Notes under the pieces: model-generated
Database searches by the model: none
What the model was told of the DNA's origin: nothing
The model's input: the letters and a program-made list of their open reading frames with translations, nothing else
Source of the DNA: Candidatus Methylomirabilis oxygeniifera
GTDB lineage: Bacteria > Methylomirabilota > Methylomirabilia > Methylomirabilales > Methylomirabilaceae
Length of the DNA stretch: 32,000 nt
Direction: 5' to 3'
NCBI GenBank assembly: GCA_000091165.1
Contig: FP565575.1
Span: forward strand, 1,290,001-1,322,000
Shown: positions 2,393 to 23,450 of the stretch, one piece after another
Layout of the letters: each line of letters starts with the position of its first letter
Position numbering within the stretch: position 1 is the first letter of the stretch
Made by a program: the position numbers and the translations under genes

Positions 2393-3742
2393 TTAATCGG
2401 AGCGTCCCGCTGACGGTAGTGGCTTTGGAAGCAGCCAGAACAGGAGCAGGCTCCCTATCACTGCGCTCAATGCCGACCCAGACAGAATCCCCACCTTCGC
2501 GGCGTTGAGCAACACACCCTCCAACGCCAAGCTTGCAATGAATAGGGCCATTGTGAAACCAATGCCTGCCAGTATGCCGCCCGCTGCAAGGATGCTCCAG
2601 TTCACACCCGCTGGCAGCCTGGCAATACCCACACGCACCGCCAGCCAACTAAAGCTCACGATTCCTATAGGCTTGCCGACTCCTAAGCCTACCATAACCG
2701 CCACCGCAACAGGTTCACGAAAGTCCGTAACGTTGATCGATACCCCAGCATTTGCCAAAGCAAAGAGGGGCATGATCACAAAGCTCACCCACGGGTGCAG
2801 CGCGGTCTCAAGCCGTTCAAGGGGAGATAAAATCTCTCGTGCCGCCACCTGGATATCACGCAACGCCGCGTGGTTCTTCCCCTCATTACTCCAGCGTTCC
2901 CCTTCAACATACGCAGTAAACTGCTGGACGATCGCGTGCAGGCGGCCCGCGCTGACCCACACATGGGCCGGTGTGAGCAGACCCAAGATCACGCCGGCAA
3001 TCGTGGCATGGACCCCGGATGCATGGAACGCCAACCAGATCACTACCCCAACGATGCAATAGATCGGGACACTACGCACCCCAAGGCGGGCCATCCCTCT
3101 CACGACACCAAGACCCAGCAAGCCCAAGAAAAGCGCAGCGATGTTGATGTGGCTCGTATAGCCGATAGCGATGACCAGGATTGCGCCGATGTCGTCAGCG
3201 ATCGCGAGCGACAGGAGGACAATGCGCAAGCCCTGCGGGACTCGTGTCCCCAAGATCGCCAGACAACCAACGACAAAAGCGATGTCGGTCGCCATGGGAA
3301 TACCCCAGCCGTGCTCGCCGGGCTGTCCGAGCTGGCCCGCGAGATAGAGACTAGCCGGTACGACCATGCCGCCCGCCGCTGCAATGATGGGGAGCGCGGC
3401 CGTTCGCAGGTCTCTGAGTTCCCCAAGCACTAATTCGCGTTTGACCTCTAAGCCAACCACAAAAAAGAAAATCGCCATGAGACCGTCGTTGATCCAATGC
3501 TTTAAGGAGTGGTTCAACTCAAAAGCGCCAAGCGTGAAACCGAGTGGAGTCTTCCACAGGCTCAGAAAGGCATCTGCAAAAGACGAATTGGCGAGGCCGA
3601 GCGCAATACATGTCACGAACAGCAGGAGAATCCCACTGGCTGCCTCGATACGTAAAAAGCGCGCGAGCGGCTCGATGATACGATCGACCGGTTTCGCAGG
3701 CAGGCGAGCCAGTTCGTTAGAATGTTGAGGTTGTTGCAGCAT
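2393..3742 (-). CDS. nhaA: Na+/H+ antiporter NhaA
   Basis: 449-aa ORF with an ATG start. NhaA signature stretches are present: GIPMATDIAFVVGCLAILG and LSLAIADDIGAILVIAIGYT (the paired Asp of the ion site). The protein is polytopic throughout. Confidence 0.92.
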   Translation of the reverse strand: MLQQPQHSNELARLPAKPVDRIIEPLARFLRIEAASGILLLFVTCIALGLANSSFADAFLSLWKTPLGFTLGAFELNHSLKHWINDGLMAIFFFVVGLEVKRELVLGELRDLRTAALPIIAAAGGMVVPASLYLAGQLGQPGEHGWGIPMATDIAFVVGCLAILGTRVPQGLRIVLLSLAIADDIGAILVIAIGYTSHINIAALFLGLLGLGVVRGMARLGVRSVPIYCIVGVVIWLAFHASGVHATIAGVILGLLTPAHVWVSAGRLHAIVQQFTAYVEGERWSNEGKNHAALRDIQVAAREILSPLERLETALHPWVSFVIMPLFALANAGVSINVTDFREPVAVAVMVGLGVGKPIGIVSFSWLAVRVGIARLPAGVNWSILAAGGILAGIGFTMALFIASLALEGVLLNAAKVGILSGSALSAVIGSLLLFWLLPKPLPSAGRSD

Positions 3743-3824
3743 ATGGCACCCCTACATCTGATTCGGTTTCTGCGAAGTCGACATTCGCGGCAAGCAGGTT
3801 CGAGCCGGCCGCGCGGGATACGCG

Positions 3825-4247
3825 CTACTCCTGCTGAATCGAACTCAGATAGTCAGTGAGGGCTCGTGAGTGCAGCAGTGAAATGTAGCCCGGGTAGTCT
3901 TCACGTTGACGCTCGGTCTCGAACACCGCTCCCCAGACAGGCATCTCCCTCGTACCATGCTCAGCTACTGCTCGCCTACCGTCGATGATGTGCATCACAT
4001 AGCTCTCATCAAATCGCCCGCCGCGACGCTTTGTGATCAGTCGAAGGTTGGATGGGGGTCGTCGTAAGGATGCTGCCAACGAACCGTTTCCGTCTCCGGA
4101 CTCACCGTGACACGAGGCGCAGTGCCGACGATAGAGGGCCTGTCCGGTAGGCGGCTCCGGAGTGCTACGGCACGAGACGAGCATCGGACTGACAGCGAAC
4201 GCGAGGACGGCAGCTCTCATAGCGATTCTAGTTAGCTTATCGACCAT
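3825..4247 (-). CDS. Monoheme c-type cytochrome, predicted lipoprotein
   Basis: I prefer the internal ATG at 4247 (AGGAAGG RBS 7 nt upstream) to the 193-aa track ORF, which overlaps the upstream gene. The N-terminus MVDKLTRIAMRAAVLAFAVSPMLVSC ends in the lipobox LVSC. It has a single CASCH heme-binding motif and a distal Met candidate in REMPVWG. Confidence 0.8.
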   Translation of the reverse strand: MVDKLTRIAMRAAVLAFAVSPMLVSCRSTPEPPTGQALYRRHCASCHGESGDGNGSLAASLRRPPSNLRLITKRRGGRFDESYVMHIIDGRRAVAEHGTREMPVWGAVFETERQREDYPGYISLLHSRALTDYLSSIQQE

Positions 4248-4273: not shown

Positions 4274-4480
4274 TCAAGCAACGACTGAGATTTTCACCGG
4301 CTCTGTGAGCGCCTCTCCGACAAGGTGCCGGCTCCACAGCCCGCTCATCGTGACAGCCAGGCACCCCATGACCAAGAGGAATGTTTCCAGCTCCTCCTCC
4401 ACCCAACGGACGGAGAAAGGCAACACCAGGACAAGCCCCATGATCAGCCCCAGTCCGATGATTATGGTGATCTCTGACAT
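4274..4480 (-). pseudogene. 68-aa ORF resembling only the N-terminus of a DUF1646-family (predicted cation transporter) protein; a truncated remnant that may still be translated
   Basis: The sequence is MSEITIIIGLGLIMGLVLVLPFSVRWVEEELETFLLVMGCLAVTMSGLW... From memory it matches the N-terminal pattern of DUF1646 proteins (..VLPF..K.VE.NLE.FLF.MG..). Full-length members are about 350 aa as far as I recall. Here the ORF stops at 4274 and the cytochrome c gene starts 26 nt later. It has a good RBS (GGAGG 9 nt before the ATG at 4480). The family assignment rests on recollection and is not verified. Confidence 0.45.
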
Positions 4481-4513: not shown

Positions 4514-4554
4514 AATAAAATAAAAAGCCGCCTCCGCTTCACGCGGATGGCGGC
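4514..4554 (-). terminator. Intrinsic terminator forming the 3' part of leader element copy 1
   Basis: Minus-strand RNA reads GCCGCCAUCCGC-GUGAA-GCGGAGGCGGC (11 bp with one bulged A) followed by UUUUUAUUUUAUU. It lies about 35 nt upstream of the ATG at 4480, inside a 5' leader rather than after a gene. Confidence 0.8.
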
Positions 4555-4602
4555 CCGACCACCCTCTCTCCTCCGGAAATAGGTAATCGCTATCTCCGGA
4601 CC
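4514..4602 (-). promoter_or_regulatory. Structured 5' leader element, copy 1 (candidate riboswitch or transcription attenuator)
   Basis: Minus-strand RNA reads GGUCCGGAGAUAGCGAUUACCUAUUUCCGGAGGAGAGAGGGUGGUCGGGCCGCCAUCCGCGUGAAGCGGAGGCGGCUUUUUAUUUU. It has an 11-bp hairpin (UCCGGAGAUAG/CUAUUUCCGGA), a purine-rich linker and a terminator. A possible antiterminator, GGGUGG-UCGGGCCG-CCAUCC, overlaps the terminator 5' arm. A second copy is at 20206-20292, with a 37-nt identical core (4543-4579 equals 20233-20269). Confidence 0.6.
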
Positions 4603-4626
4603 TCTTAGAATAAATCCGTTACGTTT

Positions 4627-4656
4627 TTTATATCATGGAAATGAGTGTGGTGACCA
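4627..4656 (-). promoter_or_regulatory. Candidate sigma70 promoter (extended -10) for the leader and cation operon
   Basis: On the minus strand: TGGTCA (revcomp of 4651-4656), an 18-nt spacer, then TGaTATAAA (the -10 TATAAA is revcomp of 4627-4632, preceded by TG). The predicted start is about 20 nt upstream of the leader hairpin. Confidence 0.35.
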
Positions 4657-4717
4657 GCAAAACTCCTACCATGTTGCAGGGGTTGGCGCGGAGCCGATTG
4701 ACCTTGCCATGCTCCAG

Positions 4718-5497
4718 TTAACAGGCTGTACCCATCCATCGGAGAAGTGCAATCACTTCCTTCACGTCCCGCACGTAATAGTGGGCCTTTGAGCCCGCAT
4801 AGGCGCCAACCTGTATCGTGATGCCCTCGGGCAGCGCCCCGAATGCACCTCCATCCGTGTGATCGTCACCGATGTAAATCGGCAGGACTGAGCGTCGGTG
4901 AATTTCCTTCATCAACCACAGCGCGGCATGACCTTTTATCCAGTTGAGCCTGGGACAGAGTTCGATAATCTTCCTTCCGAAAAGGACTGTCAGTTCCGAA
5001 GAACGAACAAGGGGAAGTATTTCGCACACGAATCTCCCTATGAGATGCCTCTCCAGTTCGGTAGACAATAACCGGTAATGCAGGCTGACTGAAAGGCCTT
5101 TGTCCTCGACGAGCACGCCAGGGATATCTGCCACTACACTGACGAGCTGCGACCGAATACGGGCGACGGTTTCCTGAAAAGACCGCGGCACGATTACCTT
5201 GGCCTGCCGACCAACTTGCCACATCTCCCATCCGTGATTGCCGATATAGATCAGGTTTCGCACCCCCACCCGCCGTCGCAGCTCGTTGATCGGTCGTTCG
5301 CTGATCACGGCAACTGTGATTCGAGGATGGTGTGAGAGCGCCCGGAGCACCGACCGTATCGAAGCGGGAAGCGTCGCCTGCTCCGGGGTGGGAGCGATCC
5401 GCATCAGTGTGCCGTCGTAATCCAGGAGCAGCAAGGTGTGACTACTGCTCACTATTTCTGCCGCAACCCGCGGCCACTGGGACCAGAGCTGTTCCAT
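4718..5497 (-). CDS. otsB: Trehalose-6-phosphate phosphatase (HAD-IIB)
   Basis: 259-aa ORF. HAD motif I is LLLDYDGTL, and IYIGNHG and IYIGDDHTDGGAF (motif IV) are present. The layout is typical of OtsB. No otsA is present in the window. Confidence 0.8.
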   Translation of the reverse strand: MEQLWSQWPRVAAEIVSSSHTLLLLDYDGTLMRIAPTPEQATLPASIRSVLRALSHHPRITVAVISERPINELRRRVGVRNLIYIGNHGWEMWQVGRQAKVIVPRSFQETVARIRSQLVSVVADIPGVLVEDKGLSVSLHYRLLSTELERHLIGRFVCEILPLVRSSELTVLFGRKIIELCPRLNWIKGHAALWLMKEIHRRSVLPIYIGDDHTDGGAFGALPEGITIQVGAYAGSKAHYYVRDVKEVIALLRWMGTAC

Positions 5498-7997: not shown

Positions 7998-9077
7998 CTA
8001 CCCCGAATCCGAAGGAACATCAATCGGGGAACCGGACCGGTGGTCCCAGTCGGGTCTTATCCCAATTCTAAGCCCAGTCGCTCGATCGAAAAACCTCATC
8101 GCTTGTTCCTCGATGGCGAATTCGTAACGTCGGTCCTGCAGGAAGGTAACCGTACTATCCGAGGGAATCCTGGCCAGGACATGGGCATTTCCGAACTTCT
8201 CCTCTAAACAGCCGTAAACAATTCGCTCGGCCCCCAGATACTCCACTCGCGTCAGGTTGAGCTGAAAGGACGCCAGCTTACCTTGTCCTCTATAGACCTC
8301 CTTCGGAAAAAGATGCTCGGGACGAAGGCCGATGACAACATCCCCATGCTCAACCAGATTCATGGGAGGCGATCCCAGAAAGCCGGCCACAAAGGTATCA
8401 GCCGGCTCGTCGTAGATCTCTTGAGGCGTACCAAGCTGCCTGACCCTCCCTGCATGCATCAAAGCCATCCGGTCTGCAAGCCCCATGGCCTCCATCTGGT
8501 CATGGGTGACATAGAGGGTAGTGGTCCCGATCCGCCGTTGCAACAGCAGAAGCTCCTCTCGAGCTGCGGTCCGAAGTTTTGCATCAAGGTTGGAGAGGGG
8601 CTCATCGAGGAGAAACACCGCCGGCTCTCGCACCAACGCTCTGGCTAAGGCCACTCGTTGCCGCTCGCCTCCGGACAGTTCACGGGGCCTCCGATTAAGC
8701 AGGTCCTCGATCCCGAACATAGCGGCCGCCCACTCTACTTTCTTCTGGATAGCCTCCCGCCCCATTCCCTGGACCTCGAGAGGAAAGGCGATGTTTTTGA
8801 AGACCGTCATATGGGGGTAGAGGGCATAGCTCTGGAAGACCATGGCTACCTGCCTCGCCTGTGGTGGAAGATCGTTCGCCACCCGTCCTCCTATTCGCAC
8901 CTCCCCACACGTGGGTTGCTCTATGCCGGCAACGATTCGAAGAAGCGTGGACTTTCCGCACCCCGATGGCCCCAGGAGGACAAAGAATTCCCCGTCATTG
9001 ACGAGAAGGTCCACGCCATCCACGGCCCGAACTGCTCCGAACTGTTTTGTGACCCCCTTGATTTCAACCGTTGCCAT
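7998..9077 (-). CDS. Sugar ABC transporter ATP-binding subunit (MalK/UgpC/MsmX type)
   Basis: 359 aa. Walker A is GPSGCGKST, the ABC signature is LSGGERQRVALARAL and Walker B is VFLLDEPLSNLD. It has a C-terminal regulatory (TOBE-like) domain. Confidence 0.93.
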   Translation of the reverse strand: MATVEIKGVTKQFGAVRAVDGVDLLVNDGEFFVLLGPSGCGKSTLLRIVAGIEQPTCGEVRIGGRVANDLPPQARQVAMVFQSYALYPHMTVFKNIAFPLEVQGMGREAIQKKVEWAAAMFGIEDLLNRRPRELSGGERQRVALARALVREPAVFLLDEPLSNLDAKLRTAAREELLLLQRRIGTTTLYVTHDQMEAMGLADRMALMHAGRVRQLGTPQEIYDEPADTFVAGFLGSPPMNLVEHGDVVIGLRPEHLFPKEVYRGQGKLASFQLNLTRVEYLGAERIVYGCLEEKFGNAHVLARIPSDSTVTFLQDRRYEFAIEEQAMRFFDRATGLRIGIRPDWDHRSGSPIDVPSDSG

Positions 9078-9115
9078 ACCCTACTCACCCAATACTGTGA
9101 GCCTGTTTCTCAATT

Positions 9116-9952
9116 CTACCCCTTCACTGAACCGGCCGTGAGACCGGAAACAATACGGCGTTGGAAGAAGAGGACGAGAAGGATCAATGGCGTGGTGACA
9201 ACGATCGTGGCGGCCGCCATCTCTCCCCAGGGAACCTCGTGGAGGCCCGGAAAGAGGGCGATGGCCACAGGGATCGTCCGCATCGCCTCACTTGAGGTGA
9301 AGGTCAGCGCATAGAGGAATTCATTCCAGGCAAAGATAAAGACCAGTATGGCGGCGGTCCCGATCCCCGGCGCCGCGAGGGGGAGGAAGATCCGAACGAA
9401 GACCTGAAACGGTGTGCAACCGTCTACCAGAGCCGCCAGGTACAGCTCGTCGGGGATCTCCCTGAAGACGCTCCACAGGATCCAGATGGCAAGGGGGAGG
9501 GCAAAGGTGGTATAGGGGACAACGAGCCCGGCGTAGGTATCCCGCAATCCCAGGGTTCGGATGATCAGATAGAGGGGACTCACCGCGGCAATAGGAGGGA
9601 ACATGGAGATGGAAAGGACCATGAAGAGTAGGAGGTTTCTTCCTCGGAACTGAAGCTTGGCAATGGCGAACGCAGCAAGGGAGCCGATGGAGAGGCAGGA
9701 CACGGTGGTCAGGGAGGCAACAATCACACTGTTCAGGATAAATCGACCGAATGGGCGGTCTTGAAAGATAGCGAGGTAATGATCGAGGACCGGCCTTGTC
9801 GGAAAGAGCGGCGGCAGACTACTGATCTCGGACGTGGGTTTAAGCGATGTGAGCAGTTGCCACAGGAAGGGTAAGAGGCAGAAGGTAGCCAACCCTGTTA
9901 AGAGGGCCCAAAAGATCGACCGTCTTGCGACCCGCTTTGTCCGGCTACCCAT
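9116..9952 (-). CDS. Sugar ABC transporter permease (MalG-like)
   Basis: 278-aa polytopic ORF with a binding-protein-dependent transport EAA-type loop (LYLAALVDGCTPFQVFVRIFLPL). It overlaps the upstream permease gene by 8 nt. Confidence 0.9.
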   Translation of the reverse strand: MGSRTKRVARRSIFWALLTGLATFCLLPFLWQLLTSLKPTSEISSLPPLFPTRPVLDHYLAIFQDRPFGRFILNSVIVASLTTVSCLSIGSLAAFAIAKLQFRGRNLLLFMVLSISMFPPIAAVSPLYLIIRTLGLRDTYAGLVVPYTTFALPLAIWILWSVFREIPDELYLAALVDGCTPFQVFVRIFLPLAAPGIGTAAILVFIFAWNEFLYALTFTSSEAMRTIPVAIALFPGLHEVPWGEMAAATIVVTTPLILLVLFFQRRIVSGLTAGSVKG

Positions 9953-10820
9953 GATGCTGCCTCCTCAAGAGGAGGATGCACAGAGTGCTGATGAGCAGGA
10001 CGGTGAGAAACGTCGCCACGGCCACCGTAGAGCCGTAGCCGAACTGAAGGGTCTGGAAAAGGAGCTTGTAGGCGTAGAGGCTTAATGTCTCGGTGGTGTT
10101 GGCCGGTCCGCCTCCCGTCAGTACATAGACCAGATCGAAGAGCCGGAAGGCATCGAGCGTTCTGAAGAGGAGGGCGATCAGGATAAAGGGCAACAGAAGA
10201 GGAAAGGTGATCCGCCGGAAGATCTGCCACCGGCTTGCGCCGTCAACTCTCGCCGCCTCATACACCTCCTCAGGAATCATCTGGAGGCCGGCCAACAGGA
10301 TGAGGGCCGCAAAGGGACTGGTCTTCCAGACGTCGGCCAGGATGAGCGAATGCATGGCCAGGACGCGATCCCCAAGCCAATTGAGTGGGGAGGACAGCAA
10401 GCCTGTCTGCTGCAGAAGGTAATTCAGCAGGCCGAAGTCGGGGTTCAAGATCCATTCCCACATCCTGGCCGAGACCACGGTGGGGATAGCCCAGGGGATG
10501 AGCACGACAGCCCTGAACAAGCCCCGTCCTCGAAAAGACCCATGAAGGAGTATGGCCAGGAGAAGACCGACAGTCAGCTCCAGGGAGACGGAGAGTAGGG
10601 AGAAGTATGCGGTATTCAGGAAGCTCTGCCAAAAGCGAGGGTCTTGGATGAGAAAGCGGTAGTTGTCGAGACCCACGAAGTACGAGATGCCGAACACAGG
10701 CATCCTCCGATCGAGACTGATCCTGAAGGCATTCAGGATCGGGAAGATGGCCACAGCCCCGATCAACAGGCAGGCCGGCAGAATCATAAGCAAGGCCGGC
10801 CTGATCTCGTCCTTTCTCAT
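9945..10820 (-). CDS. Sugar ABC transporter permease (MalF/UgpA-like)
   Basis: 291-aa polytopic ORF with the EAA loop EVYEAARVDGASRWQIFRRITFPLL. It overlaps the binding-protein gene stop by 4 nt (ATGA-type). Confidence 0.9.
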   Translation of the reverse strand: MRKDEIRPALLMILPACLLIGAVAIFPILNAFRISLDRRMPVFGISYFVGLDNYRFLIQDPRFWQSFLNTAYFSLLSVSLELTVGLLLAILLHGSFRGRGLFRAVVLIPWAIPTVVSARMWEWILNPDFGLLNYLLQQTGLLSSPLNWLGDRVLAMHSLILADVWKTSPFAALILLAGLQMIPEEVYEAARVDGASRWQIFRRITFPLLLPFILIALLFRTLDAFRLFDLVYVLTGGGPANTTETLSLYAYKLLFQTLQFGYGSTVAVATFLTVLLISTLCILLLRRQHHG

Positions 10821-12112
10821 TCCACCTCCAGCTTCAAGATGTGCTCGATGAGTCGGGAGGCGTCCTCCAGAGCCCGCTCAGGCGGTTTCACCCCCATGAT
10901 GGCCGCGCTCAGCTCCGGTTGGAGGAGTTGGGAGATCATGAGGTAGAAGGGAGTGACAGGCCTGGGACGCGCCCGGCGCATCGCCTCGTACAGAGGCGGG
11001 ATAAAGGGGTTCGCCATTTTGAGCTCTGCATCGTGATAGAGGGGATCACGCGCCGGTGGAAACCCGAGCTCGATTGCCAGAACCTTCTGAGCGGCCTGAC
11101 TGGTCAGGAACTCGACGAGTCTCCGGGCGGGGTCCGGACGTGTTGAGAAACGGTTGACCCCGAGCAACCAGCCGCCCAGTGTCGGAGCACTTTGATACCC
11201 CTCAAAGGAAGGGAGCGGGGCAATGCCGACCCTCCCTCGTACCTTGGAACCTTTATGCCCGTATAGCGCCAAGGCGTAGGGCCAGTTCCGCATGAAAATC
11301 GCTCGGCCGGCTCCGAAGAGGTGACGGGTCGCCTCCTCATCCGCCGATGTCACAAGGGGCGGAGAGACTTTGTTGACAGCAATGAGGTCATGCATCAACT
11401 GGAGAGCCTCAACAGCCTGCTTATCCCGAAGGGCCGACCGGCGCCCATCCAGAACACTACCCCCATTTCCGTGGATGAACTCCAGAGCGACACAGATCAA
11501 CCCTTCATATTGCTTCCCCTGCCAGACGAACCCCTTCAGATCAGGATCCTGTTCCCCTTCCAGGATGGCCCTCGCCTGTCGGGACAGCTCCTTGAAGGTT
11601 CGGGGAGGCGCGAATCCATACTTCGAGAGCAAGTCCTTTCGGAAGTAGAGGATTCCAGCGTTCGCGAACCAGGGGACAGCATAGATTTGATCTTTATAGG
11701 TTGCGGCTTCAACAGGGCCTGGCAGAAACTCCGCTAATCCCTTGACCCCTAATCCCGGCGTGAGATCCAGGAGCCACCCCGCTCTGGCGAACTCCTGGAT
11801 CCAGATGACGTCCAGCGCAAACACGTCAAAGGCCGCGGACTTGCCCTCGAGGGCTGTCACGTAGAACTGATGCTGCTGGTCCGTAGAGGTGGGGAGGACC
11901 TCCTCGATCACCTTAACCCCAGGGTTCTGCCGCTCAAACGCCTCGATCAGCCCGGAAAGGGCTTCAGGAGATGGGACCTTAAAATGGGCGAACACGATCC
12001 TCGCTCCGCCCTCTACGTCCGTCATGCCCCCTTCCCTGGCGCACCCGGCAAGGATGGAGAGGACAATGATGAAGAACGCTCCACATCCCGGCCTAGAGAT
12101 GGGAGATCTCAT
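10817..12112 (-). CDS. Extracellular solute-binding lipoprotein of the sugar ABC transporter (family 1)
   Basis: I prefer the internal ATG at 12112 (GGAGGAG RBS) to the 467-aa track ORF. The N-terminus MRSPISRPGCGAFFIIVLSILAGC has the lipobox LAGC. The rest has the length and composition of a family-1 sugar-binding protein. Substrate specificity cannot be read from the sequence. Confidence 0.82.
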   Translation of the reverse strand: MRSPISRPGCGAFFIIVLSILAGCAREGGMTDVEGGARIVFAHFKVPSPEALSGLIEAFERQNPGVKVIEEVLPTSTDQQHQFYVTALEGKSAAFDVFALDVIWIQEFARAGWLLDLTPGLGVKGLAEFLPGPVEAATYKDQIYAVPWFANAGILYFRKDLLSKYGFAPPRTFKELSRQARAILEGEQDPDLKGFVWQGKQYEGLICVALEFIHGNGGSVLDGRRSALRDKQAVEALQLMHDLIAVNKVSPPLVTSADEEATRHLFGAGRAIFMRNWPYALALYGHKGSKVRGRVGIAPLPSFEGYQSAPTLGGWLLGVNRFSTRPDPARRLVEFLTSQAAQKVLAIELGFPPARDPLYHDAELKMANPFIPPLYEAMRRARPRPVTPFYLMISQLLQPELSAAIMGVKPPERALEDASRLIEHILKLEVE

Positions 12113-12800
12113 CCTTCTCCTCCTGATCCTTCTCGCTGCGGAGGCGGCGTTCGAGCAGTTCCCTGGCCAGGTCCCTCCCGCCCAGGCCAAAGGCCAGCGC
12201 CAGGGCGAGCACGACGCCACCGAAGGCGATCGAGAAGGCCGCCACCACCATCTCTTTGGCGATCCCTAATTGGGTGAGGACCGTCGCCGCAGTGAAGATC
12301 AGGACGCCCCACCGAATCAGGGTGGCGATGAAGTGTGCCCCCCGAAGTTGAGCATTGACGGCCGCAATCAGGGCCCCTTGGGCCAAAAAGATGGCGAGCA
12401 GCCATCCGGCCCAGAGGAGGAGAAGGGCGGTCAGGAGTTGGGGTAAGAAGTCCAGAGCGCCTGTGGTAATTCGAGTGGCCGCCGGCAGGTTCAAGGCGTC
12501 GATCCCCATGAAGGTAAACACAAGAAAGACGGCCCAGAAGCTCAGGCGGCCGACAAGGTAGGAGCAGGGTCGTCTCACCCCTGCCTTGGTCAGAGACTGG
12601 CTCAACCCCCATCGCTCACAGAGCGGATCGAACTTTACAGCCAACAGGATCCGGTGGAGGAGACTTTTCACGATCCACCCCGCCACGAGGCCGATGACGA
12701 CGAGAGTCAGCATAGCCAGGATGTTGGGCAGAAAGAGGGTCAGCCGCTGACCGGTATTTCGAACGGCATCGAGTATCGCCTCTTGCCATAGCTCATTCAT
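12093..12800 (-). CDS. Membrane protein with conserved TM-helix repeats (MscS N-terminal-like); lacks an MscS beta-domain
   Basis: 235 aa. It has repeated segments of the type FLPNILAMLTLVVIGLVAGWIVK / DFLPQLLTALLLLWAGWLLAIFLAQ / ATLIRWGVLIFTAATVLTQLGI and an acidic C-terminal tail (EKDQEEKDEISHL). The pattern matches what I recall of the 'conserved TM helix' repeat found in mechanosensitive-channel relatives. Confidence 0.6.
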   Translation of the reverse strand: MNELWQEAILDAVRNTGQRLTLFLPNILAMLTLVVIGLVAGWIVKSLLHRILLAVKFDPLCERWGLSQSLTKAGVRRPCSYLVGRLSFWAVFLVFTFMGIDALNLPAATRITTGALDFLPQLLTALLLLWAGWLLAIFLAQGALIAAVNAQLRGAHFIATLIRWGVLIFTAATVLTQLGIAKEMVVAAFSIAFGGVVLALALAFGLGGRDLARELLERRLRSEKDQEEKDEISHL

Positions 12801-12804
12801 GGTT

Positions 12805-14058
12805 TTACCTCCAACGCGCCACCAGATACGGCTTCATCGCTTCGAACCGTTCAGCCATCGTTTCGATGACCCCTTCGACCTGCTGATGACCGCTCTCTTG
12901 CGTCTCCAGGACGAAAGAGGCGGTTCTGCCGAGGTAGAGCGGGGTCAGGGCCTTGAGCAGATGCTCAAGATGCATGACCCGATGATGGTAGGCCAGCGCG
13001 AAATCGTACACGACAGCGACCCAGACATCCATCGGAAACCGGAACTCCTCCGTCTCCAATGGAGCGATGACCAGCAGTTCGGCCAAGGTCTCCGGGGCCA
13101 GAATGATCTCCCAGATAGGTAATAGGTCGCGAACGCCCTGCTCAAAGGCGCTCACCATCCGTTCTACGTTCACCGAGACATGCTCCACTTCCACCTCGCG
13201 TGACGGTCCGAAGATGGGGACAGGATTCGATCCTTGCGTCGCCTGCCACACGCCCTGGTACTCCTCCATGAGGCTGAAAAGGGAGCCCACCACCTGCACC
13301 AGCATCCCGGCGAGATGCTGCCCCGGATCTTTGTGCTCGTGAATCTTGGCCCCGAGGAACGCCTGGCAGATCCGGTATCGCTCGGCGGCCGCGGTGACCG
13401 TCATCCAGATATCGATCCCGAAACGGGCCACATCGGTCTCCCATACCTGCTTGGTGAGATACAGGGCGGCCAGCTTCCCTGAAAAGCCGAAGTCGCCACC
13501 GATAGGCTGTCGAATCTGTTGGCCATACAGGGTCCTGGTCAAGGGGTAGACAATACTGTTCGTAATGGTCCCGTCGTACTTGTGCCGATGGTACAGCGGC
13601 GCCACATAATCGAACCCCTCCTCGTAGACGGGTCGGATCAGTCGATCCACCCACTCGGGCGAAATAGAGCGAAGGTCCGAGTCGACGACCGCACAGGCTT
13701 GCACCTGCAGCGCTTCGGCAATCTTGAAGATTGTTCGAAAGGCGCTCCCCTTGCCGGGAATCCCATGATAGGGCGTGATGATCTTGTGGATGGGAGGCAC
13801 GGGATGTTGAACCAGCAGGAGGGAGGGGTCTTCAAGAGCAGCCTCAACAACCTGTGAGGTCCCGTCCTGAGAGCCTCCATCGGAGTTGACAATGACGGAT
13901 CGAGCGCGCGGAAAGTACATGGCGAGTCCGGAGGCAACGGTCTTGACCACGTCCCCGATCGTGGCAGCGTTGTTGTAGCTCGGGATTCCGATCAGGATGT
14001 CGGCCTTCCTGATCTCGTGCAGCCTTTCCAACACGGGTTCATAGAGGAACTGTTCCAC
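12805..14058 (-). CDS. GT-A fold glycosyltransferase (GT2/GT78-like); candidate second glycosylation step or single-step glycosylglycerate synthase
   Basis: The track ORF (517 aa) overlaps the upstream phosphatase gene. There is no ATG near the junction, so I propose GTG at 14058 (GAGGA 9 nt upstream); the start is uncertain. The N-terminal nucleotide-sugar fold reads ILIGIPSYNNAATIGDVV...IVNSDGGSQDGT and the DXD motif is AVVDSDLRSI. A long helical C-terminal domain (about 180 aa) is arranged like what I recall of the Rhodothermus mannosylglycerate synthase architecture. Confidence 0.7.
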   Translation of the reverse strand: MEQFLYEPVLERLHEIRKADILIGIPSYNNAATIGDVVKTVASGLAMYFPRARSVIVNSDGGSQDGTSQVVEAALEDPSLLLVQHPVPPIHKIITPYHGIPGKGSAFRTIFKIAEALQVQACAVVDSDLRSISPEWVDRLIRPVYEEGFDYVAPLYHRHKYDGTITNSIVYPLTRTLYGQQIRQPIGGDFGFSGKLAALYLTKQVWETDVARFGIDIWMTVTAAAERYRICQAFLGAKIHEHKDPGQHLAGMLVQVVGSLFSLMEEYQGVWQATQGSNPVPIFGPSREVEVEHVSVNVERMVSAFEQGVRDLLPIWEIILAPETLAELLVIAPLETEEFRFPMDVWVAVVYDFALAYHHRVMHLEHLLKALTPLYLGRTASFVLETQESGHQQVEGVIETMAERFEAMKPYLVARWR

Positions 14059-14063
14059 CTTCT

Positions 14064-14906
14064 TCAGTCCTCGCGGACGAGCAGCTCCAAGACGGCCGTT
14101 CGCCAGCCGTACGGCCCGATCCCCTGGGCACGGATGAGATTGGGGATCCTGACCGTCTGGTCGTACTTCCCGTCGATCCGTTGGACGAGGATGGGGATAT
14201 CTACAGCCTGAAGCATGGGAAGGTCGTTGTGGCTGTCCCCAATACCTACCGTACGCACCCTTCCAGAGGCCTGCCGAAAAAGCTCGGTCAACGTTGAGAC
14301 CGCTCTCCCCTTGTCGTTGCACCCGGTGAGGTGGTCGAACCTCCCTCCCCGCATACACAGGAAACCCCGCTCCCTCAAAAGCGCTTTCATCCGTTCCGCT
14401 TCTTCTTCCGACTCATCGACAAAGAAGGGTTCGTCGTACTCCCGCTCCTTGGCCAGGCATGCCTTCTTCAAAGGAAGTCCGGTGAGCCGAGCTACTTCTT
14501 CCGCGCTCAGATCCGAAAAGCCCACGGCCTTGACGCCGCTATCCTTCCTTGCCATTTTCAAAGCTGCGACCAGTTGGGAGTAAGGACTACCAGTCTCAAT
14601 AACGTAGTACCCGGCGATCTTTCTCTGGTAAGGATAGGCAAAGGCGAAATACCCTTTAGGAATAAAGGCAGCACCGCCGTTCTCCACAACAAACGGGTGG
14701 CGGTTGTTGAGGGCACGGCGATAGCACTCCACTTCCGCCCTCGTCTTACTCGTACAAAGAACGAGAGGGATCCCTCTCCGCTCGACCTCTTGCAGGGCTT
14801 CCTGGGCCGGATCGAAACTGTACGTCTTATGGTCCAGCAACGTCCCATCCAGATCGGTAAAGATGAGAAGGGGGGGGCTCTGCTCCGGACTATGCGTTAT
14901 CAGCAT
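14064..14906 (-). CDS. Mannosyl/glucosyl-3-phosphoglycerate phosphatase (MPGP/YedP family, HAD-IIB)
   Basis: 280 aa. Motif I is LIFTDLDGTLLD. VLCTSKTRAE, REYDEPF and GIGDSHNDLPML (motif IV) are present, which is the characteristic YedP/MpgP layout. It overlaps the synthase gene by 17 nt. Confidence 0.85.
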   Translation of the reverse strand: MLITHSPEQSPPLLIFTDLDGTLLDHKTYSFDPAQEALQEVERRGIPLVLCTSKTRAEVECYRRALNNRHPFVVENGGAAFIPKGYFAFAYPYQRKIAGYYVIETGSPYSQLVAALKMARKDSGVKAVGFSDLSAEEVARLTGLPLKKACLAKEREYDEPFFVDESEEEAERMKALLRERGFLCMRGGRFDHLTGCNDKGRAVSTLTELFRQASGRVRTVGIGDSHNDLPMLQAVDIPILVQRIDGKYDQTVRIPNLIRAQGIGPYGWRTAVLELLVRED

Positions 14907-16098
14907 CCACCGCCTCCCGAAGCCGGATCAAGAAATCGGGGACCGCTGCCAGGACACGGTTCCAGTTCGGGATCAAAGGGAGACCCAGCGGATCGGCCAG
15001 GAACGTCTCAATCGCCAACTGGATGGCCTTCGCGAAGGCCTCGACGGCCTGCCCTTCCTGATGTTGGTCGTATACCAGCCGGTTGATATACGCGTCATTC
15101 TGGTAGCGGCTCAGCATATCGCGGGCTGTTCTAATATAGGTGATCGGCAGGGTCTTCAGGAGCCCATCGGACAGGAGGGTGCCCTCTTCAGCCAATGTCC
15201 TCAGGATGCTCTTTGTGATATCAATCGCCATCCGCGTCAGACCCTTGGTCGGATCGGTCGCGGACAGATCCTGATGCTTGTGTTCATAGGTATCGGCAAG
15301 GTCGACCTGACAGACCCTGCCTACGGCACAGTTCCGGTAGACCTGGGCCAGCACCCCGACCTCCAGTCCCCAATCCCACGGAATCCTGTTCACCCGGGCA
15401 AGATCGGCAATCATGGCGAATTCTCCGGCTAATGGGTATCTGAAGCTATCGAGGTAGGTCAAGAACGGTTGCGGGCCCAAAATCCGCTGGAGAGCACGGA
15501 TGAGGGGTACCACCAGGAGCCTGACGGCCCGCCCGTGCAGTCGATCGGTTACCCGGCTGTAGTAGCCTTTTGCAAACTCGAACGCCAATCGCGGATTTGC
15601 CACCGGATAACAGAGTCTGGCAAGCAGCTCTCGATGGTAGGTCAAGATGTCGCAATCGTGCAGGGCGATGACGTCGCTTTGGCCACGGGCCAGGACGTAG
15701 CCGAATGTCATCCACGCCGACCTCCCCTTGCCGTCAGGTCCCGCCGAGATACCGCGTTCCTCCAGCAGTTGGTAGAGGGCCTGGATCCTGGGCCCGTCGT
15801 TCCAGAGCAGGAGCGGCGCTTGCGGAAGAGGCGCAAAGAACGCCTTGGCCCGCAGGAACTCCTCTTCGCCGGCCCGTCCAAGACCAACGACGATCTCTCG
15901 CAGATACCGGACCTGGGCCAGTTCATCGACAATCCTGGGTAGCGCCTCCCCCTCCAGTTCAGAGTAGAGGCATGGCAGCACCAAGGCGATAGGTCGATAC
16001 AGCAGCGTTTCTTCCAGCTCCTTCTCAAGCTGCTCCAGGTTTGGTTTGCCGAGTCGATGGAGCGTCGTAATCACACCTGTCTGATGGAAGTCACTCAT
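14890..16098 (-). CDS. gpgS: GT81 glucosyl-3-phosphoglycerate synthase (mannosyl donor not excluded)
   Basis: I prefer the internal ATG at 16098 (GGAGGAAATCGG upstream) to the 436-aa track ORF. The N-terminus reads MSDFHQTGVITTLHRL. The motifs GKGRSAW, IALHDCDI, HGRAVRLLVVPLIRAL, PLAGEFAM, WGLEVGVL and YEHKHQDL parallel the conserved blocks I recall from mycobacterial and other GT81 GpgS enzymes. Confidence 0.8.
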   Translation of the reverse strand: MSDFHQTGVITTLHRLGKPNLEQLEKELEETLLYRPIALVLPCLYSELEGEALPRIVDELAQVRYLREIVVGLGRAGEEEFLRAKAFFAPLPQAPLLLWNDGPRIQALYQLLEERGISAGPDGKGRSAWMTFGYVLARGQSDVIALHDCDILTYHRELLARLCYPVANPRLAFEFAKGYYSRVTDRLHGRAVRLLVVPLIRALQRILGPQPFLTYLDSFRYPLAGEFAMIADLARVNRIPWDWGLEVGVLAQVYRNCAVGRVCQVDLADTYEHKHQDLSATDPTKGLTRMAIDITKSILRTLAEEGTLLSDGLLKTLPITYIRTARDMLSRYQNDAYINRLVYDQHQEGQAVEAFAKAIQLAIETFLADPLGLPLIPNWNRVLAAVPDFLIRLREAVDADNA

Positions 16099-19569: not shown

Positions 19570-20136
19570 TTAATGCCTATGCTCTCCAGCGGTCAGACTC
19601 TTCATGTAAGCCACCAGATCGATGAGCTGCTGGACCGTCATGGAGTCGTTGTAGCTTGGCATCTTTGATGTGCCATCAGCGCCGAGATACTCTTCTCGTT
19701 CAGTCTTGTGGTGCTTGATCCGCCAGGCTGCGGAGGCATTCGGGTCGATCATCGTCTCGGCGAAATACTCCGCGGAGTGCATCGCCCCCATCCCCGAGAG
19801 GGCAGGCCCCACATCCCCCTGTTCGGCTTCGGCTGCGGGAAAGTCCTCACCAACAACCTCATGGCACTTGAAGCATTCAAGGTCGACGAAGACTTGCCGT
19901 CCCGCGTGATGATCTCCATCCGGGATGGTAAATCGCCACCGCGGAGGGATGGCCAGGCGGGGCTGCGGCTTGACCAGGCGTTCCTGTGGCATGAACTCAG
20001 GCGGAGGTCCCACCAGTCGATGACGGTGATGTCCCCCCTCCCTAGGAGGTACATCACTCCACCCATTTAGGACCGAGACAAGCAGAAGACTACACGTCAG
20101 AACAGCTCCCCTGACCACGCTCCCAATTATCCTCAA
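19570..20136 (-). CDS. Monoheme c-type cytochrome, His-rich, with an N-terminal signal or anchor
   Basis: I prefer the TTG start at 20136 (AAGGAG 7 nt upstream) because the track ORF start would lie inside the leader terminator. The N-terminus is LRIIGSVVRGAVLTCSLLLVSVL. It has the heme motif CFKCH and the distal Met in SKMPSY. Several His clusters are present (GGHHRHR, GDHHAG, KHHK, and the C-terminal GEHRH). Confidence 0.75.
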   Translation of the reverse strand: MRIIGSVVRGAVLTCSLLLVSVLNGWSDVPPREGGHHRHRLVGPPPEFMPQERLVKPQPRLAIPPRWRFTIPDGDHHAGRQVFVDLECFKCHEVVGEDFPAAEAEQGDVGPALSGMGAMHSAEYFAETMIDPNASAAWRIKHHKTEREEYLGADGTSKMPSYNDSMTVQQLIDLVAYMKSLTAGEHRH

Positions 20137-20205: not shown

Positions 20206-20244
20206 AAATAAAAAAGCCGCCATCCGCTTGTCGCGGATGGCGGC
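20206..20244 (-). terminator. Intrinsic terminator forming the 3' part of leader element copy 2
   Basis: Minus-strand RNA reads GCCGCCAUCCGC-GACAA-GCGGAUGGCGGC (a perfect 12-bp stem) followed by UUUUUUAUUU. It lies about 70 nt upstream of the TTG start at 20136. Confidence 0.85.
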
Positions 20245-20292
20245 CCGACCACCCTCTCTCCTCCGGAAACGCATGATTGCCGTCTCCGGACC
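20206..20292 (-). promoter_or_regulatory. Structured 5' leader element, copy 2 (candidate riboswitch or transcription attenuator)
   Basis: Minus-strand RNA reads GGUCCGGAGACGGCAAUCAUGCGUUUCCGGAGGAGAGAGGGUGGUCGGGCCGCCAUCCGCGACAAGCGGAUGGCGGCUUUUUUAUUU. The architecture is the same as copy 1. Relative to copy 1, two hairpin base pairs are changed in a compensatory way (U-A to C-G and A-U to G-C). Confidence 0.6.
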
Positions 20293-20372
20293 CTGGGAAG
20301 AGTTCTGCTACATTGTTGCGTTATCGGTTTCGCGTCAACATAACGCGATCCATCGAGCAATTCTCATATTGA

Positions 20373-20400
20373 TTTTTAGCCACAACTCCTCGGAAGTCAA
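20373..20400 (-). promoter_or_regulatory. Candidate sigma70 promoter upstream of leader copy 2
   Basis: On the minus strand: TTGACT (revcomp of 20395-20400), a 16-nt spacer, then TAAAAA(T) (revcomp of 20373-20378). It lies about 80 nt upstream of the leader hairpin. A second, weaker candidate (TTGACG-17-CAATGT) lies closer. Confidence 0.3.
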
Positions 20401-22807: not shown

Positions 22808-22881
22808 TGGCTGGGGGGCAAGGATTCGAACCTCGATAAGCAGATCCAGAGTCTGCCGTCCTACCATTGGACGACCCCCCA
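22808..22881 (-). tRNA. tRNA-Gln (anticodon CUG), CCA encoded
   Basis: I folded the minus-strand 74-mer UGGGGGGUCGUCCAAUGGUAGGACGGCAGACUCUGGAUCUGCUUAUCGAGGUUCGAAUCCUUGCCCCCCAGCCA by hand. The acceptor stem is 7 bp with U1-A72 and G73, the bacterial tRNA-Gln identity features. D stem is GUCC/GGAC. The anticodon stem is GCAGA/UCUGC with loop CUCUGGA. T stem is CGAGG/CCUUG with loop UUCGAAU. Confidence 0.93.
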
Positions 22882-22924: not shown

Positions 22925-22953
22925 AATATGATGGAACAGCCGGGAAAAGTCAA
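22925..22953 (-). promoter_or_regulatory. Candidate sigma70 promoter overlapping the greA stop
   Basis: On the minus strand: TTGACT (revcomp of 22948-22953), a 17-nt spacer, then CATATT (revcomp of 22925-22930). It would drive tRNA-Gln, but it lies upstream of the terminator-like hairpin, so its role is uncertain. Confidence 0.3.
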
Positions 22954-23450
22954 GGTGAAAAAGAGGGAGCGTTGCCCTGTAAGTTCTCATGCAACGTCTG
23001 AAGCTTCATCATTTCGAAGGCCTTGGTCCCACCCGGCGTATTCATCACGACTCGATCGCCGGCCTGCTTGCCGATGAGGCTCCGCCCGATCGGGGAGGCC
23101 ACCGAAATCCAGCCACGGGCGCTGTCCATCAGCTCGGGAAAGACCAGGGTGTAGACGGTTTCCTCGCCGCTGTCCTCGTCTATGAGATGGACGGTGCTGC
23201 CCAGGGCAACGCGGTCCTTTGGGATCTGTCTCAGATCGATCTTGCTGATCTCCGCAATCCGTTGTTGCAGAAAGGCCATCCGAGCCTTGACAAAGCCCTG
23301 CCGGTCTTTGATGGTTTCGTACTCGCCGTTTTCTCGCAGATCACCTAACTCCCTGGCAGCCTGGATCTTCTTTGGGAGATCCTGCCTGAACTCTCGATCG
23401 AGTTTGTTGAACTCTTGCCGAAGGTCATCAAGCAATGCCTCAATCTTCAT
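22950..23450 (-). CDS. greA: Transcription elongation factor GreA family
   Basis: I prefer the ATG at 23450 (AGGAGG RBS), which overlaps the gltX stop as ATGA. The coiled-coil N-domain carries the acidic tip ARELGDLRENGEYETIKDRQ. The C-terminal FKBP-like domain reads VALGSTVHLID...VASPIGRSLIGKQAGDRVVMNTPGG. Confidence 0.88.
   Translation of the reverse strand: MKIEALLDDLRQEFNKLDREFRQDLPKKIQAARELGDLRENGEYETIKDRQGFVKARMAFLQQRIAEISKIDLRQIPKDRVALGSTVHLIDEDSGEETVYTLVFPELMDSARGWISVASPIGRSLIGKQAGDRVVMNTPGGTKAFEMMKLQTLHENLQGNAPSFSP

Follow-up and report, generated by a model that had tools for sequence, protein, structure and literature searches.

In 2017 the nhaA-I motif was put forward as a candidate cis-regulatory element related to sodium; it precedes Na+/H+ antiporter genes and, in rare cases, DUF1646 or other genes (PMC5737381). 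White et al. (2022, PMC9646797) showed typical members to act as ON switches selective for Li+, and named them Li+-I riboswitches. Amongst the gene associations of nhaA-I RNAs, nhaA accounts for 356 of 944, and otsA (16), glycosyltransferase (5), DUF1646 (4) and mscS (3) genes are also represented (PMC9646797). White et al. left open whether the members linked to osmotic stress sense Li+ or Na+ (PMC9646797). Rare members with an intrinsic terminator were reported only from Deltaproteobacteria, before hypothetical genes, and in that 2022 survey of RefSeq genomes terminator platforms were found only with Na+-responsive variants (PMC9646797).

The terminator-type 'hypo' RNA of Desulfobulbus propionicus is Na+-responsive and was named Na+-II; the design gives cation-dependent read-through in single-round transcription (PMC9646797). 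At construct position 54 the RNA carries C instead of the U found in most nhaA-I RNAs, and its C54U mutant (M4) responds to Li+, Na+ and NH4+ (PMC9646797). The D. propionicus sequence reads GGGGUCCAGAAAC...GUUUCUGGAGGUUUUCUUGUUAGCCGGGCCGCUAAC, and the terminator behind it uses GGCCGCUAAC a second time (PMC9646797, oligonucleotide table); this sequence places position 54 at the final nucleotide of the P2 5′ arm, which is Rfam model position 42. The three validated Li+-I RNAs have G-C as their basal P1 pair (GGGUGC...GCAGG), and D. propionicus has C-G. The nhaA-I family includes the validated Li+-I riboswitches and their Na+-II variants, and the element class discussed below, its mechanism and most of its gene associations have already been published.

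Two nhaA-I aptamers in the window

The window analysed here is a 32-kb stretch of Methylomirabilis DNA, which was scanned as a whole against all 4227 Rfam families at their gathering thresholds. Three matches were obtained: one tRNA and two nhaA-I aptamers (RF03057), both on the minus strand. Copy 1 (4545..4603) scored 44.2 bits and copy 2 (20235..20293) scored 52.0 bits, against a gathering score of 37, and both matches span model positions 1-55 of 55, with window-wide E-values of 8.7e-6 and 1.1e-7, respectively. An original prediction, made from the letters of the window, had placed two minus-strand elements here, with extents that lie within 1-3 nt of ours, and had read them as a cation-responsive riboswitch with a terminator platform. 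The scores of both copies above the RF03057 gathering threshold support that reading. Of the Rfam models that it proposed for checking, nhaA-I was positive for both copies, and the DUF1646 motif (Na+-I) matched neither leader, even at E<=10. Its fallback of a new class gives way to a known Rfam family. When both leaders were scanned permissively (4227 families, E<=10), nhaA-I was the only family to match over the aptamers; weak matches to CRISPR-DR37, BcKCsr2, P17 and IS102 fell on the terminator hairpin only, and these families were rejected.

Both aptamers have the layout of the family: P1 flanked by GGGU and AGG, a 7-bp P2, the loop CGGGCC and the loop-adjacent GGU/GCC, with the deviation that copy 1 has AGGU in place of the GGGU consensus. 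In copy 1, AGGU is followed by P1 (4599-4573), AGG (4572-4570), a linker (4569-4565), the P2 5′ arm (4564-4558), the loop CGGGCC (4557-4552) and the P2 3′ arm (4551-4545). The corresponding parts of copy 2 are GGGU, P1 (20289-20263), AGG (20262-20260), the linker (20259-20255), the P2 5′ arm (20254-20248), the loop CGGGCC (20247-20242) and the P2 3′ arm (20241-20235). J1/2 is AGG plus AGAGA in both copies, and P2 pairs GGGUGGU with GCCAUCC over 7 bp, closed by the 6-nt loop. The 'invariant purine-rich linker' of the earlier reading is present, but is better parsed as the J1/2 linker plus the P2 5′ arm. In the alignment to the model, the highly conserved positions of P2 and its loop all agree with the RF03057 consensus in both copies.

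The P1 helix of copy 1 consists of 10 contiguous pairs, and that of copy 2 of 9 pairs and a bulge. Two of the P1 pairs differ between the copies by compensatory change (U-A to C-G and A-U to G-C), and the loops differ as well, as first described. Pairwise alignment showed a 38-nt stretch, UUUCCGGAGGAGAGAGGGUGGUCGGGCCGCCAUCCGCG, to be identical between the copies (4579-4542 and 20269-20232), with unrelated flanks; the identical core had been noticed before, at a length of 37 nt that falls one short. The core GGTCGGGCCGCC occurs twice within the 32-kb window, both times in a 5′ leader.

Each aptamer runs into a GC-rich intrinsic terminator hairpin with a U-tract, again as originally read. The copy 1 terminator (stem 4554-4527, U-tract 4526-4517, minus strand) has the stem GCCGCCAUCCGC GUGAA GCGGAGGCGGC with one bulged A, and RNAfold gave it -22.2 kcal/mol. 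A simple terminator scan missed this hairpin because of the bulged A, although it is visible with RNAfold. The copy 2 terminator (20244-20216, U-tract 20215-20206, minus strand; -27.1 kcal/mol) has a perfect 12-bp stem. The terminator scan, which counted 14 pairs in it, 10 of them G-C, ranked it as the top terminator-like hairpin within 19 kb. The U-tracts are UUUUUAUUUU in copy 1 and UUUUUUAUUU in copy 2. Taken together, aptamer, terminator and U-tract extend over 4603-4517 (copy 1, AGGUCCGGAGAUAGCGAUUACCUAUUUCCGGAGGAGAGAGGGUGGUCGGGCCGCCAUCCGCGUGAAGCGGAGGCGGCUUUUUAUUUU) and 20293-20206 (copy 2, GGGUCCGGAGACGGCAAUCAUGCGUUUCCGGAGGAGAGAGGGUGGUCGGGCCGCCAUCCGCGACAAGCGGAUGGCGGCUUUUUUAUUU) on the minus strand. 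The folding z-scores of the whole elements were -4.6 and -5.0, and none of 200 shuffled sequences was equally stable.

The terminator overlaps the aptamer. In both copies it begins at aptamer nucleotide 50 of 59, and its 5′ arm is built from three nucleotides of the P2 loop plus the entire P2 3′ arm. The minimum-free-energy fold of the full leader consists of P1 and the terminator. The original prediction had proposed that GGGUGG pairs with CCAUCC in competition with the terminator. The mutual exclusion is right in substance, but the pairing is not a separate antiterminator: it is P2 of the aptamer itself.

Both copies lie inside 5′ leaders, before start codons with a ribosome-binding site (RBS), in agreement with their first placement. 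The distance from the end of the U-tract to the start codon is 36 nt in copy 1 (ATG 4480, RBS GGAGG 4494-4490) and 69 nt in copy 2 (TTG 20136, RBS AGGAG 20148-20144). The preceding gene ends 115 nt (copy 1) and 240 nt (copy 2) 5′ of the aptamer; a trehalose-phosphatase gene lies just upstream of copy 1. A promoter-like element, TTGCTG-17 nt-CATGAT (4632..4660, minus strand), can be read directly from the sequence ahead of copy 1 and would set the transcription start approximately 20-25 nt before the aptamer. This element scores under the threshold of a consensus scan; its TTGCTGGTCA...hexamer layout is kept in Methylomirabilis tolerans, and the L132 population has TTGCTG-17-TATGGT. For copy 2, the candidate site TTGACT-17-AAAAAT (20372..20400, minus strand) is a consensus match only (9/12), approximately 79 nt ahead of the aptamer.

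Genes downstream of the two elements

The first ORF after copy 1 (4274..4480, minus strand) encodes a 68 aa N-terminal stump of a DUF1646 protein (PF07854), annotated as CBE68590.1, which aligns to profile positions 4-59 of 347 only (E 5.5e-14). We take this stump to be a decaying remnant, because M. tolerans keeps only DNA matching approximately its last 16 codons. It is followed on the same strand by genes for a cytochrome c lipoprotein (4247-3825; PF13442/PF00034), the Na+(Li+)/H+ antiporter NhaA (3742-2393; PF06965, E 1e-141) and a Na+/Ca2+ exchanger family protein (2294-1365; PF01699). The gene order agrees with the calls in the public assembly, and NhaA, the cytochrome c and the DUF1646 stump have sequences identical to CBE68588-CBE68590 of Candidatus Methylomirabilis oxyfera/oxygeniifera (NC10). 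The stump, nhaA and the exchanger had been recognized at the outset; the cytochrome c gene between the stump and nhaA adds to that list.

Copy 2 precedes a longer series of minus-strand genes, identified with Pfam and NCBIfam models. A cytochrome c gene with a TTG start (20136-19570) is followed by genes for a HAMP histidine kinase (19413-17956), a DUF4147/MOFRL glycerate kinase-like protein (17876-16584), a receiver-only response regulator (16618-16124), a glucosyl-3-phosphoglycerate synthase-like protein (GpgS; 16098-14890) and a mannosyl/glucosyl-3-phosphoglycerate phosphatase that scores above the TIGR02461 cutoff (14906-14064). Behind the phosphatase lie genes for a GT2 glycosyltransferase, an MscS-like protein and a sugar ABC transporter. 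These genes all point the same way and are separated by short gaps; the gap ahead of the histidine kinase gene is 156 nt. The terminator scan revealed no terminator-like hairpin between these genes comparable to the riboswitch terminators, and read-through from copy 2 probably reaches the glucosylglycerate-synthesis genes. The two elements are thus each located in the 5′ leader of a cation-transporter gene or of one of the minor gene classes listed for nhaA-I.

We considered a recent segmental duplication that included the cytochrome c gene, and rejected it: the cytochromes downstream of copies 1 and 2 have no detectable sequence similarity, and the flanks of the elements do not align.

Relatives within Methylomirabilis

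Loci from the genus were retrieved via NhaA orthologues. In M. tolerans, aptamer and terminator stand directly before cyt c-NhaA-Na_Ca_ex, and in the L132 population the riboswitch precedes Na_Ca_ex-cyt c-NhaA. IS fragments follow the riboswitch in Methylomirabilis limnetica, where cyt c-NhaA lies approximately 2 kb further on. Two Na_Ca_ex-NhaA loci (L129 and L131) gave no nhaA-I match at the gathering threshold. The TetR-cyt c-MscS-OtsA cluster of L132 has no upstream riboswitch, unlike L140 and L143, so the switch is not universal in the genus.

When metagenomes were scanned with the core and the start of the terminator, nine further Methylomirabilis-like loci were found. The riboswitch precedes cyt c-NhaA in two of the nine, a copy-2-type cytochrome c gene plus an MscS gene in one, and genes for TetR, a small protein and a copy-2-type cytochrome c in another two; in three, the contig ends before any downstream gene. 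In the remaining locus (L139), the riboswitch is followed by OtsB and then by clear orthologues of the kinase, the glycerate kinase-like protein and GpgS of the window, which supports control of the kinase-GpgS cluster by copy 2. Judging by the genes that follow them, several Methylomirabilis copies appear to link ion export with the making of compatible solutes, with mechanosensitive channels and with a two-component system.

Across 13 Methylomirabilis sequences, the aptamer cells are paired in 98.2% of cases, versus 41-63% with slid partners. Two P1 pairs have changed on both sides, and P2 is invariant. The terminator is kept in all copies, with 99.3% of cells holding; its changes are one-sided only, and the bulged A is present in 10 of the 13 sequences.

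Relatives in other phyla

Species-representative genomes were scanned with the pattern GGTCC...GGAGG...GGYCGGGCCGCC, which returned at least 120 stretches. Among the matches listed, approximately 100 of 120 were chance matches in GC-rich genomes, and 19 elements scored above the RF03057 gathering score, all with U at model position 42 (U42). These 19 elements, again among the matches listed, come from Nitrospirae, Omnitrophota, Elusimicrobia, Planctomycetales, Verrucomicrobiota, Acidobacteriota and one deltaproteobacterium. Overlapping terminators follow the Nitrospirae, Omnitrophota, Planctomycetales and deltaproteobacterial elements and several of those from Elusimicrobia, whereas none of the Verrucomicrobiota elements among the matches listed has one.

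Among the same listed matches, the genes downstream encode OtsA-type GT20 enzymes with an N-terminal sensor-like region, GpgS-like proteins (in five Verrucomicrobiota), MscS, Band 7 proteins, Na+/H+ exchangers, a Na_Ca_ex protein, a CitMHS_2 transporter and an Rnf/Nqr subunit. The taxonomic and gene tallies come from a biased sample and speak to occurrence, not frequency. It should also be noted that the pattern itself required the C-G basal pair, and that the link to osmolyte genes is drawn from that sample, without a matched control.

Covariation was seen in P1 pairs 3-8 and P2 pairs 1-3 over 28 sequences from several phyla. These pair counts were made on segments anchored to GGGU, AGG and CGGGCC, because MAFFT misaligned the P1 3′ arms of the cross-phylum set. 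The homologue search that the original prediction had suggested has yielded further aptamers both in the genus and in other phyla, with covariation in P1.

These relatives bear on the idea that the elements sense no ligand at all, being a REP-like terminator repeat, a recent DNA duplication or an attenuator that depends on a protein or sRNA. The 38-nt identity between the copies could suggest duplication, and the covariation within the genus is modest, with two pairs changed on both sides and P2 unvarying. The flanks are unrelated, however, and the downstream cytochrome c genes share no detectable similarity. A REP-like repeat, the outcome that was to have overturned the first reading, is contradicted by the presence of just two copies, each in a 5′ leader, within the 32 kb, and by conserved counterparts before the same cyt c-NhaA and HK-GlyK-GpgS gene sets in relatives. 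Nothing in the evidence calls for a protein- or sRNA-dependent attenuator, which had been held in reserve as a further fallback. Moreover, the aptamer scores above the Rfam threshold in seven other groups, with P1 covarying and with or without a terminator, and the nhaA-I family has been validated biochemically. We consider it very improbable that the elements are not sensors.

Proposed mechanism

Both elements very likely belong to the nhaA-I riboswitch family and act by ON logic. The direction of the switch is drawn by analogy with the D. propionicus experiments. In the absence of ligand, the far more stable terminator would form and transcription would stop in the leader. A bound monovalent alkali cation would hold P2 and its loop in the aptamer fold, such that the terminator could not nucleate and RNA polymerase would read into the genes. 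Copy 1 would then switch on the genes for the cytochrome c, NhaA and the Na+/Ca2+ exchanger. Copy 2 would switch on those for the cytochrome c and the two-component system, and its effect would probably extend to the glucosylglycerate-synthesis genes further downstream.

The identity of the cation

The nucleotides that separate Li+-I from Na+-II RNAs give a mixed signature. Model position 42 is U in both copies and in all 13 Methylomirabilis sequences (GGUCGGGCC). The G-C basal P1 pair of the Li+-I consensus (GGGUGC...GCAGG) and the U that follows AGG there are absent: both copies have a C-G pair (GGUCC...GGAGG) and A after AGG. As in Na+-II, an nhaA-I-type aptamer is followed by an intrinsic terminator that overlaps P2, but the equivalent of D. 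propionicus C54 (model position 42) is U.

Our preferred reading, to which we assign a probability of roughly 0.55-0.6, is that both elements are nhaA-I ON switches for which the physiological signal is intracellular Na+ (salt stress), probably with a cross-response to Li+. We infer Na+ as the ligand from context. Terminator platforms in the 2022 survey were confined to Na+-responsive variants, the C-G basal P1 pair is shared with D. propionicus, and the D. propionicus C54U mutant, which carries the same U as the window copies, kept its response to Na+. The replacement of the conserved U after AGG by A points to a Na+ or a broad response. The genes predicted to be controlled are those of osmoadaptation: NhaA, the CaCA exchanger and GpgS with its phosphatase, joined by OtsB and MscS in relatives. 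Elsewhere, among the matches listed, relatives with the C-G pair precede OtsA, GpgS, MscS, Band 7, Na+/H+ exchanger and Rnf/Nqr genes. Against Na+, most Li+-I RNAs have U at model position 42 and Na+-II has not, and copy 1 would control nhaA, the signature Li+-I association. Against the reading as a whole, the promoters are only consensus-like. A search of the literature on salt-stress expression in Methylomirabilis found no transcriptome.

It is possible, if rather doubtful, that the copies are canonical Li+-I riboswitches that select Li+ over Na+, in which case the operons, chiefly through NhaA, would serve lithium detoxification, with a terminator in place of RBS occlusion. This alternative is favoured by U42 and by a core that matches the conserved GGUCGGGCCGCC perfectly; nhaA is the commonest Li+-I association (356/944), and otsA, glycosyltransferase, mscS and DUF1646 genes are also among the listed nhaA-I associations. 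However, most of the genes that would be controlled concern osmolyte synthesis, mechanosensitive channels and signalling, an odd set for a trace toxic ion, and White et al. allow Na+ sensing by such members. Both the basal P1 pair and the A after AGG depart from the three validated Li+-I RNAs, and U in the D. propionicus scaffold gave a broad response, not a Li+-specific one.

That last result also bears on whether the aptamers sense other monovalent cations, or several without discrimination (NH4+, ionic strength), as D. propionicus M4 does. M4 (C54U) responded to Li+, Na+ and NH4+, and it shares U42, the terminator and the basal C-G pair with the window copies. On the other hand, M4 is an engineered RNA, the natural members studied so far are selective, and there are no ammonium-related genes among those controlled. 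We regard such indiscriminate sensing as improbable.

Returning to Na+ as the signal, we tentatively suggest that the Methylomirabilis elements and their relatives in Nitrospirae, Omnitrophota, Elusimicrobia and Planctomycetales may form a specificity subgroup of nhaA-I, in which Na+ or ionic stress is sensed without C54 and the riboswitch acts as a master switch of osmoadaptation; we hold this wider proposal to be somewhat less probable than not. The marks of the subgroup would be a C-G basal P1 pair, U42 and usually a terminator, and its regulon would comprise ion extrusion, trehalose and glucosylglycerate synthesis, MscS channels and a two-component system. Were the subgroup real, Na+ sensing by this fold would be widespread outside Proteobacteria.

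Comparison with known systems

Nitrite-dependent methane oxidisers are freshwater organisms and are of interest for wastewater treatment. The putative Methylomirabilis regulon offers a testable model of salt adaptation for them. The combination of the Li+-I signature nucleotide with an architecture and gene context resembling Na+-II makes the window copies good natural test cases for Li+/Na+ selectivity within one fold.

The DUF1646 motif (Na+-I; White et al. 2022, PMC9337991) resembles the window elements in its two-hairpin layout, in a terminator that competes with P2, in acting as an ON switch and in controlling DUF1646, Na+ transport and osmolyte genes. It differs in conserved sequence, for example in the P2 loop of Clostridium acetobutylicum 66 kefB. 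We also looked to the lower P1 of Na+-I for hints of Na+ selectivity, and dropped the comparison because the 66 kefB sequence is too different.

With the Li+-I riboswitches, the window copies share the two-hairpin aptamer, the 5′ GGGU, the AGG after P1, the 7-bp P2, the loop CGGGCC and U42. They also share the location of copy 1 in the 5′ leader before nhaA, the proposed ON-switch logic and the minor associations with DUF1646, trehalose, glycosyltransferase and mscS genes. Unlike most Li+-I members, which are thought to control the RBS, the window copies have an intrinsic terminator; their basal P1 pair is C-G and not G-C, and A replaces the conserved U after AGG. Copy 2 further departs from Li+-I in preceding a cytochrome c gene and a two-component system. 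Whereas the nhaA-I RNAs of 2022 came from Alpha-, Beta-, Gamma- and Deltaproteobacteria, the host of the window belongs to NC10.

The Na+-II RNA of D. propionicus has the same type of aptamer, the same basal C-G P1 pair (GGGUCC...GGAGG) and a terminator whose 5′ arm likewise takes up part of the P2 loop and the P2 3′ arm. The window copies differ from it in having U where Na+-II has C, and in lying before annotated ion-transport and osmolyte genes, in contrast to the hypothetical genes that follow Na+-II in Deltaproteobacteria. Relative to the 2022 description, terminator-type nhaA-I elements are extended beyond Deltaproteobacteria to NC10, Nitrospirae, Omnitrophota, Elusimicrobia and Planctomycetales, and the putative Methylomirabilis regulon, whose first genes encode cytochromes c and a two-component system, is new. 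Both the occurrence in NC10 and other phyla and this putative regulon are extensions of a known riboswitch class, and not a new system.

Genes downstream and upstream of the two riboswitches

The first intact gene after each of the two minus-strand nhaA-I riboswitches, designated copy 1 and copy 2, encodes a small periplasmic c-type cytochrome (3825-4247 and 19570-20136, respectively, both on the minus strand). The two cytochromes are unrelated to each other. The pairing of cytochrome c with NhaA is kept across Methylomirabilis, and small c-type cytochromes also occur at the related loci L127, L132, L135, L136, L142 and L143.

Behind copy 1, a 68 aa DUF1646 ORF (4274-4480, minus strand) has its own RBS and ends 27 nt ahead of the cytochrome c gene. 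The ORF is an N-terminal stump, covering only positions 4-59 of the 347-position DUF1646 profile. At the corresponding M. tolerans locus (L127, 3430-3490), the stump is reduced to DNA matching approximately the last 16 codons, and no remnant of it was found in the other relatives compared. It seems that the copy 1 riboswitch originally stood before a full-length DUF1646 gene, which was later lost.

Copy 2 is preceded by a phosphoglucomutase-family gene of 719 aa (20533-22692). A tRNA-Gln (CUG) gene (22808-22881, minus strand) sits between this gene and a GreA-like gene (22950-23498), just upstream of which a class I tRNA synthetase gene of the Glu/Gln type is located (23447-24892).

A different arrangement was observed in M. 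limnetica (L124, 1104-1720), where pieces of a transposase gene of the ISAZ013 type come directly behind the riboswitch and terminator. Band 7 and CBM48 genes then lie between the riboswitch and the cytochrome c-NhaA pair, which are ~2 kb apart, and a P-type cation ATPase gene stands behind the pair in place of the Na+/Ca2+ exchanger.

Terminator stems

In 10 of the 13 aligned Methylomirabilis terminators, the U partner for the A of the 3' arm of P2, the second aptamer stem, is missing (alignment column 73), leaving a bulged A. The copy 1 terminator (4527-4554, minus strand) carries this bulge, whereas the copy 2 terminator stem is perfect; the switching threshold may be tuned differently between operons.

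Compatible-solute genes and gene partners in other phyla

The window contains a co-directional compatible-solute island on the minus strand (4718-5497, 7998-12220 and 12093-16098), encoding GpgS-like, mannosyl/glucosyl-3-phosphoglycerate phosphatase, GT2 glycosyltransferase, MscS-like, sugar ABC transporter and trehalose-phosphatase proteins. This gene content suggests that M. oxyfera synthesises glucosylglycerate-type osmolytes and trehalose.

Elsewhere, the riboswitch is followed by genes for OtsA-type GT20 enzymes; this was seen in Elusimicrobia, in a deltaproteobacterium and in a Nitrospirae MAG (L054, L060, L094, L123, L103 and L006). These enzymes have an N-terminal extension of ~270 aa with a transmembrane start, and one of them gave a weak sCache_3_2 match, which suggests a sensor-fused trehalose-6-phosphate synthase. 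On an Omnitrophota contig (L091), two nhaA-I riboswitches lie at a distance of 1.2 kb from each other, and both have a terminator of their own; the first (2468-2518) stands ahead of an MscS gene and the second (3727-3778) ahead of Band 7/SPFH genes. In Planctomycetales (L117, 3178-3885), a terminator-type nhaA-I riboswitch lies immediately 5' of an Rnf/Nqr membrane-subunit gene, an association with Na+ bioenergetics.

In at least five Verrucomicrobiota genomes (L059, L062, L071, L113 and L115), an nhaA-I aptamer, in all cases without a terminator, is positioned 44-100 nt ahead of a GpgS-like gene whose product begins M[ST]DFFQTGA. As this gene is homologous to that at 14890-16098 in the M. oxyfera island, the link between the riboswitch and glucosylglycerate recurs across phyla.
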